From Escherichia coli (GTDB lineage Bacteria > Pseudomonadota > Gammaproteobacteria > Enterobacterales > Enterobacteriaceae), in NCBI RefSeq assembly GCF_044324785.1, contig NZ_CP172127.1: a stretch of 64,000 nucleotides of DNA. The stretch is one strand, 5' to 3'. Below, piece after piece: positions 6,255 to 62,607 of the stretch. The notes below the pieces were generated by a model, which searched no databases, was not told the origin of the DNA, and worked only from the letters and a program-made list of their open reading frames with translations. How positions within the stretch are numbered: position 1 is the first letter of the stretch; every line of letters begins with the position of its first letter. The translations under genes were made by a program, and so were the position numbers.

Positions 6255-7550
6255 TTAATCGCTGTTTTTGGCAATTAAACGTTCCGGGATAACAAAACTG
6301 AAACGTGTTCCTTTTCCTACTGTACTCTCAATATTCAGGCGACTTTCGTGATGATTCACCGCATGTTTCACGATCGCTAACCCTAATCCGCTACCGCCGG
6401 TTTGCCGGGAACGCGCTTTATCAACGCGATAAAAACGCTCGGTCAGGCGCGGAATATGCTCCGGTGCAATGCCCGGTCCGTTATCTTCAACGCTAAATTC
6501 GGCACCGTGCGGCACTCGCTGCCAGCGTACGGTGATATGCGTGCCTTCAGGCGTATGATTCACGGCGTTATAGACCAGGTTCGAAATCGCACTGCGTAGC
6601 TGATCTTCGTTGCCAGACACCTTGAGGCCGTTATCTATCTCAAAGGTAAATGTCTGTTTTTTCTGACTCAGAGTCTGAGCCTCGCGCTCAACAACGCGCA
6701 GCATCATCGGCACATCAACCTTTTCATTGAGCAAATGCGTCGGTGCGGCTTCTATTTTCGACAGCGTCAGCAATTGCTTCACCAACCCTTCCATCCGCTG
6801 GGTCTGCTCGCGCATGGTGTGCAACGCTTTTTCACGTACCGCGCCTTCCAGCGGTTGCTCATCCATCATCTCCAGGTAACCCTGTAACACGGTCAATGGC
6901 GTACGTAACTCATGGCTCACGTTGGCAAAAAAGTTACGCCGCGCCCCTTCCAGTTGATGCATTTGCGTGACATCACGCGCCACCATGAGCAACTGTTTGT
7001 GGGTATAAGGCATGACGCGAATTTCCAGATGCCGCCCGGTGTTGAGCACCAGATTGAGCGGGCGAGAAAAATCACGCATTTTCAGATATTGCGTAAACTC
7101 CGGGTAACGCAGCAGGTTAAGGATGTTCTGCCCGTTATCTTCCGGCCAGCGCAAACCAAGAATCTGTTGCGCCAGACCGTTACACCAGAAAATACCGCCC
7201 TCTTCCGTGGTCAGCACCACCGCGTCGGGTAGCGACTCCGCGCCGCTACGAAAGCGTTTAATCAGATTGCCCAGTTCACGGCGGCGTTTTTTATTTCGCA
7301 GCTGCATCTGGTGTAAGCCGTATAGTAGCGGTTCCCAGCTACCACGCCCCGGTGGCGGGGTCATACTACGATCCACCCACAGCCACCATGAAAGGCGCAA
7401 TAAATTCCAGAAATGCCAGATAAGCAGTCCCGTTACCGATGCCAGCAAAAACCAGGGCAGGTAACCAAAAAATGCACCCAGGATGAAAGCCGGGAGGCAA
7501 CAAAGTAGCAGCTCCAGCACCAGCCTTTTCCACGACAGCCGTTCCAGCAC
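6255..7550 (-). CDS. phoR: Phosphate regulon sensor histidine kinase
   Basis: 431-aa ORF with N-terminal membrane segments and a C-terminal HisKA/HATPase region ([20 protein letters not shown]); recognised as PhoR. Confidence 0.95.
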
Positions 7551-7607
7551 GTAAGATACTCCAGTTAAGAAATCATAAGCCCTGCTCTGCGTCCGATGAG
7601 CAAGGCG

Positions 7608-8297
7608 TTAAAAGCGGGTTGAAAAACGATATCCTGTACCGCGCACGGTCTGCACCATGCGGTCATGCCCGCCGGGCTCCAGTGCTTTACGCAGGCGACG
7701 AATGTGGACATCGACCGTGCGGTCTTCCACATACACGTTAGTTCCCCAGACGTGGTTTAACAGCTGCTCGCGGCTGTACACGCGCTCAGGATGCGTCATA
7801 AAAAAGTGCAGCAGTTTAAATTCTGTCGGCCCCATCTCCAGTGGCTCTTCGCCCGCCATCACCCGGTGAGATGTCGGGTCGAGGCTTAGCCCCTGCATCT
7901 CGATCACCTCTTCCACCGCCATTGGCGAAATACGGCGCATTACCGCTTTGATTCGCGCCACCAGCTCCTTCGGCGAAAACGGCTTGGTGATATAGTCATC
8001 CGCACCGGTTTCAAGGCCGCGCACGCGATCTTCTTCTTCCCCTCTGGCGGTCAACATCACCACTGGAATATCCCGGGTCATCGACTCGCGCTTGAGGTGT
8101 TTGATGAACTGGATACCGGAGCCGCCAGGTAACATCCAGTCAAGGAGAATTAAATCCGGCCAGGGTTCATTCAGTTGGTTCACAGCACTGTCATAATCTT
8201 CCGCTTCGACCGGCTGGAAGCCATTTTGCTCGAGCACGAAGCAGACCATTTCGCGAATTGGTGCTTCATCTTCTACGACCAGAATACGTCTCGCCAT
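7608..8297 (-). CDS. phoB: Phosphate regulon response regulator
   Basis: 229-aa [32 protein letters not shown]... recognised as PhoB (receiver plus winged-helix domain). Confidence 0.96.
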
Positions 8298-8345
8298 GAT
8301 TTGCCCTGTTGTAATAAATAGGTTGCGATCATTAATGCGACGTCA

Positions 8346-8379
8346 TTATGCGTCAGATTTATGACAGATTTATGAAAAG
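8346..8379 (-). promoter_or_regulatory. Pho box (PhoB binding site) in the phoB promoter
   Basis: Minus-strand reading CTTTTCATAAATCTGTCATAAATCTGACGCATAA contains the tandem CTGTCATA-type pho box repeats, upstream of phoB and divergent from sbcD. Confidence 0.75.
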
Positions 8380-8486
8380 CTCGTCGCACATATTTTCAGG
8401 TTATTGATTTCCGTGGCGCAGAAAAAAGCAAATGGCATATCTGTTTGGGTATAATCGCGCCCATGCTTTTTCGCCAGGGAACCGTT

Positions 8487-9689
8487 ATGCGCATCCTTCA
8501 CACCTCAGACTGGCATCTCGGCCAGAACTTCTACAGTAAAAGCCGCGAAGCTGAACATCAGGCTTTTCTTGACTGGCTGCTGGAGACAGCACAAACCCAT
8601 CAGGTGGATGCGATTATTGTTGCCGGTGATGTTTTCGATACCGGCTCGCCCCCCAGTTACGCCCGCACGTTATACAACCGTTTTGTTGTCAATTTACAGC
8701 AAACTGGCTGTCATCTGGTGGTACTGGCAGGAAACCATGACTCGGTCGCCACGCTGAATGAATCGCGCGATATCATGGCGTTCCTCAATACGACCGTGGT
8801 CGCCAGCGCCGGACATGCGCCGCAAATCTTGCCTCGTCGCGACGGGACGCCAGGCGCAGTGCTGTGCCCTATTCCGTTTTTACGTCCGCGTGACATTATT
8901 ACCAGCCAGGCGGGGCTTAACGGTATTGAAAAACAGCAGCATTTGCTGGCGGCTATTACTGATTATTATCAACAACATTATGCCGATGCCTGCAAACTGC
9001 GCGGCGATCAGCCTCTGCCCATCATCGCCACGGGACATTTAACGACCGTGGGTGCCAGTAAAAGTGATGCCGTGCGTGACATCTATATTGGCACGCTGGA
9101 CGCGTTTCCGGCACAAAACTTTCCGCCAGCCGACTACATCGCGCTCGGGCATATTCACCGCGCGCAGATTATTGGCGGCATGGAACATGTTCGCTATTGC
9201 GGCTCCCCCATTCCACTGAGTTTTGATGAATGCGGTAAGAGTAAATATGTCCATCTGGTGACATTTTCAAACGGCAAATTAGAGAGCGTGGAAAACCTGA
9301 ACGTACCGGTAACGCAACCCATGGCGGTGCTGAAAGGCGATCTGGCGTCGATTACCGAACAGCTGGAACAGTGGCGCGATGTATCACAGGAGCCACCTGT
9401 CTGGCTGGATATCGAAATCACTACTGATGAGTATCTACATGATATTCAGCGCAAAATCCAGGCATTAACCGAATCATTACCTGTCGAAGTATTGCTGGTA
9501 CGCCGGAGTCGTGAACAGCGCGAGCGTGTGTTAGCCAGCCAACAGCGTGAAACCCTCAGCGAACTCAGCGTCGAAGAGGTGTTCAATCGCCGTCTGGCAC
9601 TGGAAGAACTGGATGAATCGCAGCAGCAACGTCTGCAGCATCTTTTCACCACGACATTGCATACCCTCGCCGGAGAACACGAAGCATGA
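8487..9689 (+). CDS. sbcD: Nuclease SbcCD subunit D (Mre11-like phosphoesterase)
   Basis: [31 protein letters not shown]... recognised as SbcD; start chosen at the internal Met to give 400 aa; stop overlaps the sbcC start by 4 bp (ATGA). Confidence 0.93.
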
Positions 9690-12600
9690 AAATTCTCAGC
9701 CTGCGCCTGAAAAACCTGAACTCATTAAAAGGCGAATGGAAGATTGATTTCACCCGCGAGCCGTTCGCCAGCAACGGGCTGTTTGCCATTACCGGCCCAA
9801 CCGGTGCGGGGAAAACCACCCTGCTGGACGCCATTTGTCTGGCGCTGTATCACGAAACTCCGCGCCTCTCTAACGTTTCACAATCGCAAAATGATCTCAT
9901 GACCCGCGATACCGCCGAATGTCTGGCGGAGGTGGAGTTTGAAGTGAAAGGTGAAGCGTATCGCGCGTTCTGGAGCCAGAATCGGGCGCGTAACCAGCCC
10001 GACGGTAATTTGCAGGTGCCACGCGTAGAGCTGGCGCGCTGCGCCGACGGCAAAATTCTCGCCGACAAAGTGAAAGATAAGCTGGAACTGACGGCGACGT
10101 TAACCGGACTGGATTACGGGCGCTTCACCCGTTCGATGCTGCTTTCGCAGGGGCAATTTGCTGCCTTCCTGAATGCCAAACCCAAAGAACGCGCGGAATT
10201 GCTCGAGGAGTTAACCGGCACTGAAATCTACGGACAAATCTCGTCGATGGTGTTTGAGCAGCACAAATCGGCCCGCACTGAGCTGGAGAAGCTGCAAGCG
10301 CAGGCCAGCGGCGTCGCGTTGCTCACGCCGGAACAAGTGCAATCGCTGACAGCGAGTTTGCAGGTACTTACTGACGAAGAAAAACAGTTACTTACCGCGC
10401 AGCAGCAAGAACAACAATCACTAAACTGGTTAACGCGTCTGGACGAATTGCAGCAAGAAGCCAGCCGCCGTCAACAGGCCTTGCAACAGGCGTTAGCCGA
10501 AGAAGAAAAAGCGCAACCTCAACTGGCGGCGCTTAGTCTGGCACAACCGGCACGAAATCTTCGTCCACACTGGGAACGCATCGCAGAACACAGCGCGGCG
10601 CTGGCGCATACTCGCCAGCAGATTAAAGAAGTAAATACTCGCTTACAGAGCACAATGGCGCTTCGGGCGAGCATTCGCCACCACGCGGCGAAGCAGTCTG
10701 CAGAATTACAGCAGCAGCAACAAAGCCTGAATGCCTGGTTACAGGAACACGACCGCTTCCGTCAGTGGAACAACGAACTGGCAGGTTGGCGTGCGCAGTT
10801 CTCCCAACAAACCAGCGATCGCGAGCATCTGCGGCAATGGCAGCAGCAGTTAACCCATGCTGAGCAAAAACTTAATGCGCTTGCGGCGATCACGTTGACG
10901 TTAACCGCCGATGAAGTTGCTACCGCCCTGGCGCAACATGCTGAGCAACGCCCACTGCGTCAGCGCCTGGTCGCGCTGCATGGACAGATTGTTCCCCAAC
11001 AAAAACGCCTGGCGCAATTACAGGTCGCTATCCAGAATGTCACGCAAGAACAGACGCAACGTAACGCCGCACTTAACGAAATGCGCCAGCGTTATAAAGA
11101 AAAAACGCAGCAACTTGCCGATGTGAAAACCATTTGCGAGCAGGAAGCGCGCATCAAAACGCTGGAAGCTCAACGTGCACAGTTACAGGCGGGTCAGCCT
11201 TGTCCACTTTGTGGTTCCACCAGCCACCCGGCGGTCGAGGCGTATCAGGCGCTGGAGCCTGGCGTTAATCAGTCTCGATTACTGGCGCTGGAAAACGAAG
11301 TTAAAAAGCTCGGTGAAGAAGGTGCGACGCTACGTGGGCAACTGGACGCCTTAACAAAGCAACTTCAGCGTGATGAAAACGAAGCGCAAAGCCTCCGACA
11401 AGATGAGCAAGCACTTACTCAACAATGGCAAGCCGTCACGGCCAGCCTCAATATCACCTTGCAGCCACAGGACGATATTCAACCGTGGCTGGATGCACAA
11501 GATGAGCACGAACGCCAGCTGCGGTTACTCAGCCAACGGCATGAATTACAAGGGCAGATTGCCGCGCATAATCAGCAAATTATCCATTATCAACAGCAAA
11601 TTGAACAACGCCAGCAGCAGCTCTTAACGGCATTGGCGGGTTATGCACTGACATTGCCACAGGAAGATGAAGAAGAGAGCTGGTTGGCGACACGTCAGCA
11701 AGAAGCGCAGAGCTGGCAGCAACGCCAGAACGAATTAACCGCGCTGCAAAACCGTATTCAGCAGCTGACGCCGATTCTGGAAACGTTGCCGCAAAGTGAT
11801 GATCTCCCGCACAGCGAAGAAACTGTGGCGCTGGAAAACTGGCGGCAGGTTCATGAACAATGTCTCGCATTACACAGCCAGCAGCAGACGTTACAGCAAC
11901 AGGACGTTCTGGCGGCGCAAAGTCTGCAAAAAGCCCAGGCGCAGTTTGACACCGCGCTACAGGCCAGCGTCTTTGACGATCAGCAGGCGTTCCTTGCGGC
12001 GCTAATGGATGAACAAACACTAACGCAGCTGGAACAGCTCAAGCAGAATCTGGAAAACCAGCGCCGTCAGGCGCAAACGCTGGTCACTCAGACAGCAGAA
12101 GCGCTGGCACAGCATCAGCAACACCGACCTGGCGGGTTGGCTCTCACTGTGACGGGGGAGCAGATTCAGCAAGAGTTAGCGCAAACTCACCAAAAGTTGC
12201 GTGAAAACACCACCAGTCAGGGCGAGATTCGCCAGCAGCTGAAGCAGGATGCAGATAACCGTCAGCAACAACAAACCTTACTGCAGCAAATTGCTCAAAT
12301 GACGCAGCAGGTTGAGGACTGGGGATATCTGAATTCGCTAATAGGTTCCAAAGAGGGCGATAAATTCCGCAAATTTGCCCAAGGACTGACGCTGGATAAT
12401 TTAGTCCATCTCGCTAATCAGCAACTTACCCGGCTGCACGGGCGCTATCTGTTACAGCGCAAAGCCAGCGAGGCTCTGGAAGTCGAGGTTGTTGATACCT
12501 GGCAGGCAGATGCGGTACGCGATACTCGTACCCTTTCCGGTGGCGAGAGTTTCCTCGTCAGTCTGGCGCTGGCACTGGCGCTTTCAGATCTGGTCAGCCA

Positions 12601-12829
12601 TAAAACGCGTATTGACTCGCTGTTCCTTGATGAAGGTTTTGGCACGCTGGATAGCGAAACGCTGGATACCGCCCTTGATGCGCTGGATGCCCTGAACGCC
12701 AGCGGCAAAACCATCGGTGTGATTAGCCACGTTGAAGCGATGAAAGAGCGTATTCCAGTGCAGATCAAAGTGAAAAAGATCAACGGCCTGGGCTACAGCA
12801 AACTGGAAAGTACGTTTGCAGTGAAATAA
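9686..12829 (+). CDS. sbcC: Nuclease SbcCD subunit C (Rad50-like SMC ATPase)
   Basis: 1047-aa ORF with Walker A (GPTGAGKTT), long Q/L-rich coiled coil, central CPLC zinc-hook motif and a C-terminal LSGGE signature. Confidence 0.95.
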
Positions 12830-16296: not shown

Positions 16297-16752
16297 TTAT
16301 TCGCTACGGCGGGCAATAATTTTTAGCGCAGCAATATTATGCGTTTTACGCCGTAACTGATCTAATCGTCTCATCCCTATTCGCCTGTCAGCAGCACGCA
16401 GAATATTCACTAACCCCCATTTATCGCTGGTAAATTGTTTTGTTAACAGCTCCGCTTTTGGAGTATCAATATATTCACGCAATAAATCTGAAATTGAACA
16501 AATATCCGTCAGGTATGGATACCAGCAAGTTTCACCGTGAAAATTACGCACTCCACCGTTACCTGCAATAAAGTCTTTCGGGTAATCCCAGATCACGTTT
16601 TTATCCAACGTGATCCAATAACGAGGTAAATCGGTGCTTCCACCATTTTGGCTGCGCATGGGATAACGGGTACAGTGAATTTGCAGGTTGATCGTTGGCG
16701 TCAGTATGTCATAGATCTCCCGTTGTAACTTGCTCCATGGGCGTTGTGTCAT
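16297..16752 (-). CDS. Hypothetical 151-aa cytoplasmic protein, Trp/Tyr-rich, downstream partner of the 762-aa secreted protein
   Basis: ORF MTQRPWSKLQREIYDILTPTINLQIHCTRYPMRSQNGG...; no signal peptide or hydrophobic segment; its ATG overlaps the upstream gene's stop (ATGA at 16749-16752); AT-rich; no family recognised. Confidence 0.65.
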   Translation of the reverse strand: MTQRPWSKLQREIYDILTPTINLQIHCTRYPMRSQNGGSTDLPRYWITLDKNVIWDYPKDFIAGNGGVRNFHGETCWYPYLTDICSISDLLREYIDTPKAELLTKQFTSDKWGLVNILRAADRRIGMRRLDQLRRKTHNIAALKIIARRSE

Positions 16753-19037
16753 TGTTTTTCCTCAAGCCGGTGACGCGCTTCACTGCGAATTTTCCGCGTT
16801 GCCCCTGTTTTCACTAAATCACGTAACAGCGAAAGATCGGGTTGATCGACAAATAAGAGTAATGATGGATCCTCTTTTAACCACGTCGTTTTCACATCGG
16901 CAGCCAACTGTGGATTATTAATAACCAACGCCCGATCCTGAGGCTCAGTCAATGTCGTTAACAAAGACGCCGGGGTATGTGCGTTGCGCAATGCCGTTTG
17001 GCGCAAATGATCATTGCGACTTTGCAGCAATGCACGCCACCATTCATCATCTGATTTATCTTTTATCGTAGCCAGTTCCGCAAAAATATCGCTATCCTCA
17101 CTGTTCCAGCGGTGTAGTCCTCTTTCACTTTGCCTACGGGTGCTATTTTTCATACTGACAACAGCCAGCGCCCAGTCAGAGTTGAAGCGATACTGTTGAT
17201 CGAGTTTGTTGATAATTCCGGAAGGTAAATCTTTATTATCAAATAATTGGTTACGCATTCGATAGCGGTATTCAGCGGGTAAATCAACCAGTAAATCAAT
17301 GGCATTATTTAACATCTCTTCGTCAACAACACCATTATCAATCAGCGCCAGCTGTACTTCATAGACTTGCTCTTGATCTTCTTGCCGTTTGCTCATCATT
17401 AAATTTAATGTGCGTTGCCATAATTGTTTTTTATATTCCAGCGGCAACAATTTATCGCGTGCCAGCTCATCCCAGACGGAGGGAATATCATGCTGAGTGA
17501 GTAGATAACTAATCACTTCCTTCGACGTCAGATAACGCGCACCTTCGCGTAAATTGTGCACATCTTCCTTTGCCAGAGACAGTTGACGCGACTCAGGTAA
17601 CGCTATCAATAACGCCTTCACGATATTTTTATTTTCTTTATTATCCAGATACATTTGTTCTGCGATACGTTCAATATCCTCTGTACGCAGGGTTGCTGAC
17701 AGTTGAGTAATTTTTAGTTCAGTAAGCGTCCGGGCTAATGCTTCACGAACTTTGAGTGATTTATCTTTACTCAACATCACAGCTTGTTGTGCGATTAAAT
17801 CTGCTCCGGTAATTCTTTCGCGTAACTCCGGGTCTTCACTATTTATCAACTCATCGACCACTGCAGTCGGAACCAGCCAGGCGTAATCGTAATGGCTAAT
17901 TAATGTCTTGCGCACACTGAGAAAAGGGCTATGACTTAATGCCGCAACAATATCAGGAGAAAGATTATCCTGTCTGGCCTGCTCCAGCTGTACGCTCTCG
18001 ACGGGTACAGACATTAATTTTTTATTCACTTCGGCGGAAATGTTACTGTTTTTAACCAGCCCTCTGGCAACAGCTTCATCTTTAATTAATTCATCGGTAA
18101 GCAAATGCATCTGTTGAGCGGGCCAGGACTGCGCCATCGATTCACGCGTCTGGTCATCGGGGTGCTGTAGCAGTTGCAGCATAACGGCGGTTGACAAACT
18201 TTCTATATGAGTCAGAAAACGTGCCACCAGTGGATCTTCATGCTTTATTTTATCCGCAGGGAAATTATCGAGTTTCCCCGTTTCAATCCATTTTAATTTC
18301 TCATTAATTTCAGGAGCGGCTTTATCTCGAAAAAGAGGTAAACCCTGAACGATATTGTCTGCGACGCTGTCATAGTCAGGATACGCATTGGAAATATTAT
18401 CGGTTTCGATTTCACTATGATCATAAAGATTAGGCGTCACCAGTGAATAGGCTTTTTGAATATTCTCATCCCAGTTATATTCTTCACCACTTCCATCTTC
18501 ATTGATATAAAATTCAGCTTTAATGACTTCAAATTGCGTTGCTTTATCGGAAACAATAATGCCTCGCGCACTAATTCCCTTCATCACTTCAAAGTTATGA
18601 TCATTGTAATCAGCATAAACTAAACCTTTCGCTGTCATCTGTCCTTTGACATACGCGAAATCATGATTAATAAAGTTATCGACAATAACATTACCTAATA
18701 CAATCAGATGACCATTACCTGACAGATAATCATCATAATCGCCGGAAATCGTTAAATTACCGTTCACCACCAGTTTATTTTGATTGCTGAAGTTAGCGGG
18801 TAATGATAGGTCACCATTATGATAATACCAGCGGATATTATCTTTTAGCATATAAGCAGCTTCCATACTATCGTCGGTTGCCGCTTTAACCACGTTGCGC
18901 TCATCTGCCGTCATAAGATGAAAGTCAGAGGTGATAAGGTCCTCGCTACTGATCCACTCTGTGGCACATGCATTGCCAGTCATAAAAAACACGACCATAC
19001 AGATGACCAATATTTTAATTCTATTCATAATCTTCAC
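16749..19037 (-). CDS. Hypothetical 762-aa exported protein with Sec signal peptide, N-terminal Gly/Asn-rich probable beta-rich segment and C-terminal helical (HEAT/LRV-like) repeats
   Basis: N-terminus MKIMNRIKILVICMVVFFMTGNACA has a basic n-region, hydrophobic core and Ala-X-Ala-like cleavage site. The C-terminal half shows recurring D/P...LR...A...L patterns (SEDPELRERITGADL, SLKVREALARTL, DHLRQTALRNAHTPASLLTTL). AT-rich relative to its flanks. Not recognised as any K-12 protein. Confidence 0.7.
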   Translation of the reverse strand: MKIMNRIKILVICMVVFFMTGNACATEWISSEDLITSDFHLMTADERNVVKAATDDSMEAAYMLKDNIRWYYHNGDLSLPANFSNQNKLVVNGNLTISGDYDDYLSGNGHLIVLGNVIVDNFINHDFAYVKGQMTAKGLVYADYNDHNFEVMKGISARGIIVSDKATQFEVIKAEFYINEDGSGEEYNWDENIQKAYSLVTPNLYDHSEIETDNISNAYPDYDSVADNIVQGLPLFRDKAAPEINEKLKWIETGKLDNFPADKIKHEDPLVARFLTHIESLSTAVMLQLLQHPDDQTRESMAQSWPAQQMHLLTDELIKDEAVARGLVKNSNISAEVNKKLMSVPVESVQLEQARQDNLSPDIVAALSHSPFLSVRKTLISHYDYAWLVPTAVVDELINSEDPELRERITGADLIAQQAVMLSKDKSLKVREALARTLTELKITQLSATLRTEDIERIAEQMYLDNKENKNIVKALLIALPESRQLSLAKEDVHNLREGARYLTSKEVISYLLTQHDIPSVWDELARDKLLPLEYKKQLWQRTLNLMMSKRQEDQEQVYEVQLALIDNGVVDEEMLNNAIDLLVDLPAEYRYRMRNQLFDNKDLPSGIINKLDQQYRFNSDWALAVVSMKNSTRRQSERGLHRWNSEDSDIFAELATIKDKSDDEWWRALLQSRNDHLRQTALRNAHTPASLLTTLTEPQDRALVINNPQLAADVKTTWLKEDPSLLLFVDQPDLSLLRDLVKTGATRKIRSEARHRLEEKQ

Positions 19038-24470: not shown

Positions 24471-25886
24471 TTATTTCAGCCCCAGGGCGGCTTTCATGGT
24501 GTAGAAGAGATCGGTCTGGTCGGTCAGTCCAACGACATTGGCGGCATGTGGGCCATACGCCGCAATACGCAGCTGACTACCGGTATGTTCTTGTGAATCC
24601 TCTTCGGAGTTCCCGTAACTCATCACCATCACTGCGCCATCTTTGGTATTTAGCGCCTGGGTGAGGCCCGGCGCTTTGGTGTCCGGCGCGACAATCTGGC
24701 TGGCGTGGGCGTGATCAGCGGTGACTATGACCAGCGTGTTACCCTCCTTTTTAGCGAATTCCAGCGCACGTTGTACGGCTTCATCGAGATCGACCGTCTC
24801 GCCAATTTGCCCACAAGGATTCGCAGCGTGATCCTGTTTATCGATTGACGCACCTTCAACTTGCAGGAAAAAGCCTTTCTCATTTTTACTCAACAATTCA
24901 ATGGCTTTGTCGGTCATCTGCGCCAGGGTCGGTACGCTGTCATTACGTTGCGGATTAGGCGTACAGGTAACTGCGGGCTTGTCGATATTGCCGTGGTACG
25001 TTGCTTTCGGTCCTTGCCAGCGCACTGGCATATTGCCGTCAGCAAACAGTCCTAGCAGGGGTTTTTGCTGGTTCGCTTCCGTCACCGCATTCAGTGAGGC
25101 AGCATCGCTCACCAACTGATAACCACGCGCCTGTGCCTGTTCACGCAGCGTTTTTCCCTGCCATTCACCGGCGGTTGCCGTTTCAGCAAAGGTTTTTGCG
25201 CCGCCGCCAAGCGTAACATCGGCACGAGCGTTAAGCAGCTGTTCGGTAATCGATCCTCTCCCGCCTTTTTCTAGCGCGTTACCCGGACATTTTTCACTGG
25301 TCGCGCTGGGACCGTAGCATTTGCGCGAGGTCACATGCGCCACCAGCGCAGCGGGCGTGGCATCCTGCAACTCTGCGGTAGAAACGTTACCGGTCGCCAG
25401 ACCTGCGGCTTTTGCCATCTCCAGAATCGTTGGGTGATCTTTTTCATGAATATCGACGCCCAGCGCGCCGTTATAGGTTTTGACACCAGTTGACCAGGCG
25501 GTTGCTGATGCAGCCGAGTCGGTGACGTAGTCCGGTTTGCCGGTTTTTTTATTCAGCGCATAGTGAGTGTATTGCCCGGTAAGCGGTAATGCATCGATAC
25601 CTTTAAAAAAGCCGCCCGCACCTTCGGCATAATTGCGTGCAGCAGTAATTTCCGAGTCCCCCATCCCATCGCCAATCAGCAAAATAATATTTTTGGCAGG
25701 TTTATCGCTAAGAGAATCACGCAGAGCAGCGGTCTGATCACCCGTTAAGCGGCGAGCACCGCCGGGTGCAGTAATATCTCCCTGAGCAGCCCGGTTTTCC
25801 AGAACAGGCATTTCTGGTGTCCGGGCTTTTGTCACAGGGGTAAACAGTAACGGTAAGAGAGCCAGTGCAATAGTGCTTTGTTTCAC
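24471..25886 (-). CDS. phoA: Alkaline phosphatase
   Basis: [47 protein letters not shown]... recognised as PhoA; GTG start at 25886 taken to give 471 aa; the track ORF carries a 14-codon upstream extension. Confidence 0.96.
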
Positions 25887-25948
25887 TTTATTTTCTCCAT
25901 GTACAAATACATTAAAAAATAAAAACAAAGCGACTATAAGCCTCGGCC

Positions 25949-25966
25949 GTGACAGCTTTATGACAG
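25949..25966 (-). promoter_or_regulatory. Pho box of the phoA promoter
   Basis: Minus-strand CTGTCATAAAGCTGTCAC upstream of the phoA start, matching my memory of the phoA pho box (with one base difference from the K-12 sequence as I recall it). Confidence 0.75.

Positions 25967-59494: not shown

Positions 59495-62607
<3,113 letters not shown>

Follow-up and report, generated by a model that had tools for sequence, protein, structure and literature searches.

Does a PhoB-binding site that lies between phoB and the divergently transcribed sbcDC genes also govern sbcDC? The earlier note on this DNA had raised the possibility of phosphate-dependent cross-talk with the SbcCD hairpin nuclease, on the grounds that the PhoB-binding repeats lie in a short region which must also hold the sbcDC promoter on the opposite strand. 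Were PhoB to control SbcCD, phosphate starvation would alter the cleavage of DNA hairpins and the processing of palindromes, which would tie genome stability to nutrient sensing in a novel way; the evidence considered below indicates that this is not the case, at least under the conditions that have been assayed.

The locus and the phoB promoter

The window, i.e. the whole 64-kb stretch of DNA that was analysed, is E. coli chromosome in reversed orientation relative to MG1655. Its segment 7600-9700 is matched in 5424 of 5426 complete E. coli genomes at identities of 95-99.4%, with the annotations phoB, sbcD and sbcC (phoB is annotated as such in 5424 genomes). The four genes concerned are full length and score well over their NCBIfam cut-offs:

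6255..7550, minus strand: phoR, sensor kinase, second gene of the phoBR operon (NCBIfam NF008235 PhoR, 888.8 bits, full length)
7608..8297, minus strand: phoB coding sequence, 229 aa (NCBIfam NF007546 PhoB equivalog, 540 bits against a cut-off of 471)
8298..8486, between the divergent genes: phoB/sbcD intergenic region, 189 bp, bounded by the open reading frame coordinates
8487..9689, plus strand: sbcD coding sequence, 400 aa, ATG at 8487 (NCBIfam NF008206 SbcD, 641 bits)
9686..12829, plus strand: sbcC coding sequence, 1047 aa (NCBIfam NF007600 SbcC, 1930 bits)

The span 8298-8486, which the earlier note had put forward as the shared control region, coincides exactly with the 189-bp gap between phoB and sbcD. 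As sbcC overlaps the sbcD stop by 4 nt, sbcDC is taken to form one operon. The intergenic region differs from that of MG1655 by only two SNPs (8394 and 8438), both of which fall outside the pho box and the two -10 hexamers described below, and an Rfam scan of 7500-9000 returned no match at E <= 1. Elsewhere in the window, the interval between rdgC and ppnP (16297-19037, minus strand) holds two intact open reading frames, one of 762 aa whose C-terminal part is a DUF2773 domain, the other of 151 aa and belonging to the SF0329 family, at a place where the closest annotated genome has only ykiD and a frameshifted DUF2773 fragment; these two additional frames explain some 2.3 kb by which the window exceeds that genome here.

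Read on the minus strand, positions 8379..8345 run C TTTTCAT AAAT CTGTCAT AAAT CTGACG CATAAT, in which the following elements can be distinguished:

8361..8378, minus strand: main pho box TTTTCATAAATCTGTCAT, two 7-bp direct repeats with a 4-bp spacer, in place of the phoB -35 (2 mismatches to the consensus)
8350..8367, minus strand: second 18-mer CTGTCATAAATCTGACGC, overlapping the main box and contributing a weaker third repeat of 11 bp (2 mismatches; 13.2 bits)
8345..8350, minus strand: phoB promoter -10 hexamer CATAAT, read from the sequence and at least 90% conserved in 73 aligned intergenic regions

Thus the PhoB-binding repeats that the earlier note had placed in a shared region of 190 bp are real, extending over 8378..8350 on the minus strand, with the 18-bp box 10 bp upstream of the phoB -10. 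The phoB promoter shows the repeat structure of a pho box, the replacement of its -35 by that box and a -10 hexamer at 10 bp, the 10-nt spacer (8360..8351) separating the 18-bp box from the hexamer on the same strand. A search of the whole 64-kb window with the 18-bp consensus CTGTCATAWAWCTGTCAY, allowing up to 3 mismatches, gave 4 matches against 0.13 expected, a number reached in none of 100 shuffles; two of the four are the overlapping registers of the phoB box and one, at 25949-25966, is the box upstream of phoA. We also scanned the window with a weight matrix derived from the ChIP-seq sites of Fitzgerald et al. 2023 (PMC10294691), 57 of the 59 being used and the two at the phoB locus left out. 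On this matrix the register 8360-8377 (minus strand) scores 21.1 bits, joint top among approximately 128,000 positions scanned, and the register 8349-8366 (minus strand) scores 13.2 bits. The main box is identical in sequence to the ChIP-chip and ChIP-seq site at K-12 position 417093, and its centre lies 72.5 nt from the phoB start codon and 117.5 nt from that of sbcD, values equal to those in Table 2 of Yang et al. 2012 (PMC3465305). In K-12 the box is occupied by PhoB in vivo according to ChIP-chip (PMC3465305), ChIP-exo (bioRxiv 10.1101/2020.06.23.168344) and ChIP-seq (PMC10294691), and phoB RNA in low phosphate falls from 32,731 in wild type to 34 in ΔphoB (PMC10294691).

Further PhoB motifs were recorded in the window. 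The box that shares the top score of 21.1 bits, CTGTCATAAAGCTGTCAC at 25948-25966 (minus strand), is near-consensus (1 mismatch) and lies just upstream of a minus-strand open reading frame (24471..25928), identified as phoA by synteny with the annotated best-matching genome; it reads AAAGCTG in the window strain where K-12 has AAAGTTG. The fourth-best matrix match, AGTCACGACGTTGTAATA at 59564-59581 (minus strand, 15.1 bits), corresponds to none of the 59 sites in Table 1 of Fitzgerald et al., and is therefore probably due to chance. Another motif lies within phoB itself:

8178..8195, plus strand: PhoB motif GTTCACAGCACTGTCATA inside phoB, antisense to phoB and facing sbcD (16.2 bits, ChIP-derived matrix)

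This motif corresponds to the K-12 intragenic ChIP-seq peak at 417245, ATTCACAGCACTGTCATA (PMC10294691), with G in the window strain and A in K-12 at its first position.

The putative sbcDC promoter and its distance from the pho box

A scan of 8200-8600 on both strands for consensus sigma-70 promoters found none. It misses the phoB promoter because the pho box stands in for the -35, and it misses that of sbcD because the -35 there is poor: no -35 is recognisable in the sequence upstream of sbcD, and none is conserved in the corresponding aligned region. A candidate -10 can nevertheless be assigned by comparison across species:

8450..8455, plus strand: putative sbcDC -10 hexamer TATAAT, 37 nt 5' of the sbcD ATG, proposed from cross-species conservation

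In an alignment of 73 intergenic regions of up to 200 bp each (among the matches listed), the columns corresponding to TATAATC at 8450-8456 are at least 90% conserved, and in 89 of 102 Enterobacterales loci, again among the matches listed, a TATAAT stands 36-43 nt before the start codon of sbcD. From a conserved -10 without a conserved -35 we infer an sbcD promoter that would depend on its -10, start transcription at about 8462 and give a leader of some 25 nt. The suggestion in the earlier note that the shared region contains the sbcDC promoter is itself an inference, and it gains backing from the conserved hexamer. The supplements of Romero 2014 and of Fitzgerald 2023 contain no entry for a mapped sbcD transcription start site. 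The putative 5' leader of sbcD folds no better than shuffled sequences (z = -0.15). A terminator-like hairpin followed by a T-run, TGGG-TATAATCGCG-CCCA, occurs at 8446-8463 (plus strand), where it overlaps the putative sbcD -10; because of this overlap, and because its stem bases vary across genera, we regard it as probably a chance occurrence rather than a terminator.

The comparative material was gathered with the 20-mer TTTCATAAATCTGTCATAAA, searched for in a single genome of each species; it is present exactly in at least 120 loci, almost all of them from Enterobacterales (among the matches listed) and including Escherichia, Salmonella, Citrobacter, Enterobacter, Klebsiella, Kluyvera, Buttiauxella, Pectobacterium, Dickeya, Photorhabdus, Edwardsiella, Erwinia, Mixta, Hafnia and Serratia. 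Among the matches listed, 102 loci have both gene starts within reach, and in these sbcD adjoins phoB divergently. Two blocks are prominent in the 73-sequence alignment, one comprising the phoB -10 and the pho repeats, the other the TATAATC of sbcD. The 20-mer stands mostly 45-65 nt from the phoB ATG and anywhere from 102 to 320 nt from the sbcD ATG in the 102 species (among the matches listed). In 92 of these 102 loci a TATAAT lies no more than 60 nt from the sbcD start, and there the gap between box and TATAAT ranges from 65 to 283 nt (among the matches listed), with intermediate values that include 65, 67, 69, 70, 71, 72, 73, 74, 79, 81-84 and 92, so that no helical phase is kept. The geometry of the box relative to phoB is therefore fixed, and its spacing from the sbcD promoter is unconstrained. 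In some Citrobacter, Klebsiella and Entomohabitans species, represented by five loci, the phoB/sbcD gap is 278-398 bp long, an additional 100-200 bp being inserted after the pho box and before the -10 of sbcD.

The same preference for phoB is seen in the orientation of the motifs. In 100 of the 102 orthologous regions (among the matches listed) a second motif overlaps the main box at offset -11, and in approximately 20 of the 102 species (among the matches listed) a further phoB-oriented pho box of 10-15 bits, e.g. GGTCATAAGACCGTCATC, starts 19-20 bp upstream of the main box (offset +19/+20), equivalent to about 8380-8400 of the window, where E. coli has no motif. Extra boxes are almost all oriented towards phoB, and across the 102 regions (among the matches listed) no sbcD-oriented site was found at a recurring position. 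Within the E. coli gap, all motifs of at least 7 bits on the ChIP-derived matrix lie on the phoB strand, and the sequence from the box to sbcD holds none at this threshold on the strand of sbcD. Moderate conservation is also seen in a block at 8403-8411, ATTGATTTC; its counterpart in Salmonella, Citrobacter, Klebsiella, Buttiauxella and Cedecea is TTGAATTATGACAC, which holds a pho half-site or a CATAAT-like sequence on the phoB strand. As a second element this block was set aside, being degenerate in E. coli (less than 4 bits on the matrix).

With respect to the two promoters, the centre of the box lies at approximately -31 from the phoB start, in the activating orientation. Its edge is about 70-72 bp from the sbcD TATAAT, and, taking the start proposed above, its centre would fall at approximately -92 from the sbcD start, in reverse orientation. 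A PhoB-bound site is hence present upstream of sbcD, with its centre 117.5 nt before the ATG (binding from PMC10294691), and it has neither the orientation and -35 placement nor the conserved spacing to the promoter that are expected of a Pho-regulon member. Orientation, position and the unconserved spacing to the sbcD -10 argue against a direct PhoB mechanism at sbcDC.

The following mechanism would accommodate these observations. Phosphorylated PhoB would bind the direct repeats head to tail at the -35 position, 10 bp before CATAAT (8350..8345), and the bound protein would recruit sigma-70 RNA polymerase for leftward transcription of phoB; sbcDC would be transcribed rightward from a promoter of its own, with its -10 TATAAT at 8450-8455. 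For PhoB bound as far away as about -92 we know of no route to contact with the polymerase, and for this reason we consider it likely that the pho box at 8378..8350 (minus strand) is solely the phoBR autoregulatory site and that sbcDC is essentially PhoB-independent. The shared control region would then be a matter of old phoB/sbcD synteny in Enterobacterales and not of regulatory design.

PhoB and the expression of sbcDC

The earlier note did not recall sbcDC as a member of the Pho regulon, a view that is out of date, since direct action of PhoB on sbcD was put forward by Yang et al. 2012 (PMC3465305). In that study a ChIP-chip peak was obtained, and sbcD was one of ten "novel PhoB targets", with a microarray log2 value of -0.64, i.e. 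1.56-fold lower expression with PhoB activity; a luciferase plasmid carrying the sbcD promoter differed significantly between wild type and phoB knockout. Choudhary et al. 2020 (bioRxiv 10.1101/2020.06.23.168344) placed both sbcC and sbcD in a category of "hypothetically functional binding", comprising genes of the published regulon (by comparison with RegulonDB) that have a ChIP-exo peak and no differential expression. Fitzgerald et al. 2023 (PMC10294691) labelled the ChIP-seq site at 417093 "sbcD/phoB" and, in their revised PhoB regulon, do not include sbcD. The experiment by which the earlier note would have had the idea checked, i.e. a comparison of sbcD RNA between wild type and a phoB mutant under phosphate limitation, is in fact published in the latter study, and gave 274 for wild type and 271 for ΔphoB in low phosphate, at an expression level that is very low (about 270 units) and, as in the other RNA-seq study, for one growth condition. 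A PhoB effect on sbcD is consequently absent from two RNA-seq studies and seen only, as a small one, in the microarray and plasmid reporter of 2012. Of the proposal in the earlier note, the anatomy stands, in that a pho box and an sbcDC promoter share one divergent region, whereas control of sbcDC by phosphate or PhoB finds little support; the idea of cross-talk is already in the literature and is mostly contradicted there.

Several ways in which PhoB could still influence sbcDC were weighed against this reading. PhoB at the pho box might weakly repress or otherwise modulate sbcDC, making the operon a minor or condition-specific member of the Pho regulon that perhaps requires RpoS-dependent stationary phase. 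The log2 value and the luciferase difference of 2012 speak for such an effect, as does the fact that Choudhary et al. 2020 count sbcC and sbcD among the genes of the published regulon, and Fitzgerald et al. 2023 concede that sites bound without regulation may in some cases be condition-specific (PMC10294691). However, the 2012 effect is small and comes from a multicopy plasmid, and the ChIP-chip data of that study were rated by Fitzgerald et al. 2023 as substantially lower in sensitivity and resolution (PMC10294691). The near-identical RNA levels in wild type and ΔphoB, the lack of differential expression in the second RNA-seq study, the placement of the site some 92 bp before the putative start in the wrong orientation and the unconstrained spacing to the sbcD -10 in 102 species (among the matches listed) all weigh against it, and we judge weak modulation unlikely. 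A related thought comes from what is said of sbcDC itself, whose transcription reportedly depends on starvation and RpoS (Darmon et al. 2007). A PhoB effect confined to stationary phase is for that reason conceivable, and PhoB, acting either on the shared region or on the intragenic plus-strand site, might modulate sbcDC only in another state, such as RpoS-dependent stationary phase during prolonged phosphate starvation, which we consider very unlikely; if it did, the handling of hairpins and palindromes by SbcCD would be coupled to phosphate status.

Influence without contact was also considered. Strong transcription can affect a nearby divergent promoter through twin-domain supercoiling, and the induction of phoB (about 1000-fold) might in this way, or through polymerase traffic, alter the activity of the sbcD promoter. 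The putative phoB and sbcD starts lie back to back at a distance of only about 125 bp, and the induction is very large (PMC10294691), as this would demand; yet deletion of phoB silences the phoB promoter (34 units) and leaves sbcD RNA the same, a result which counts against supercoiling as much as against direct regulation and makes coupling of this kind highly improbable. Lastly, the motif inside phoB (8178-8195, plus strand) might drive an antisense transcript into sbcDC under phosphate limitation. It faces sbcD, scores 16.2 bits and is bound by PhoB in vivo in K-12, and the test of sigma-70 occupancy at the intragenic site is confounded by the phoB deletion (PMC10294691). On reading the sequence, however, no -10-like hexamer was found at the required spacing of 10 bp downstream of the motif, intragenic PhoB sites in general do not lead to regulation according to Fitzgerald et al. 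2023 (PMC10294691), and ΔphoB strains, which lose phoB DNA and most likely the site with it, show unchanged sbcD RNA (PMC10294691), so that we give antisense read-out hardly any credence. The reading of the pho box as the site of phoBR autoregulation, with sbcDC essentially independent of PhoB, is the one that we favour.

Comparison with known systems

What is seen here is the familiar autoregulatory promoter of phoBR, back to back with an sbcDC promoter that is likely to be independent, and as such is an already known feature. It has the same pho box, -10, flanking genes and orientation as the K-12 phoBR promoter (phoBp), from which it differs by the two SNPs outside these elements and in nothing functional, the window being from another strain of E. 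coli. PhoB autoregulation at the phoBR promoter was reportedly described by Makino et al. in 1986.

The listing of sbcD as a PhoB target by Yang et al. 2012 and Choudhary et al. 2020 expresses the identical idea to that pursued here, with the box 117.5 bp before the sbcD ATG. Set against this listing, later RNA-seq from two laboratories finds no PhoB dependence of sbcD or sbcC, and our comparative data show no positional constraint between the box and the sbcD promoter. Regulon lists that are compiled from ChIP peaks and weak changes in expression can accordingly retain unconfirmed members.

Close parallels are found among other divergent gene pairs that have a PhoB site in common, of which none of 12 in Table 1 of Fitzgerald et al. 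2023 (PMC10294691) is marked as significant on both partners. At phoE/proB, cusR/cusC, yoaI/yeaL and feaR/feaB (PMC10294691) there is likewise one divergent PhoB site, and only the correctly placed partner responds. The phoB/sbcD locus is a clean textbook case of this arrangement, in which a strongly bound divergent site regulates only the gene with the right orientation and spacing; it differs from cusR/cusC and feaR/feaB in that the regulated partner is new in those pairs, whereas here it is the classic phoB.
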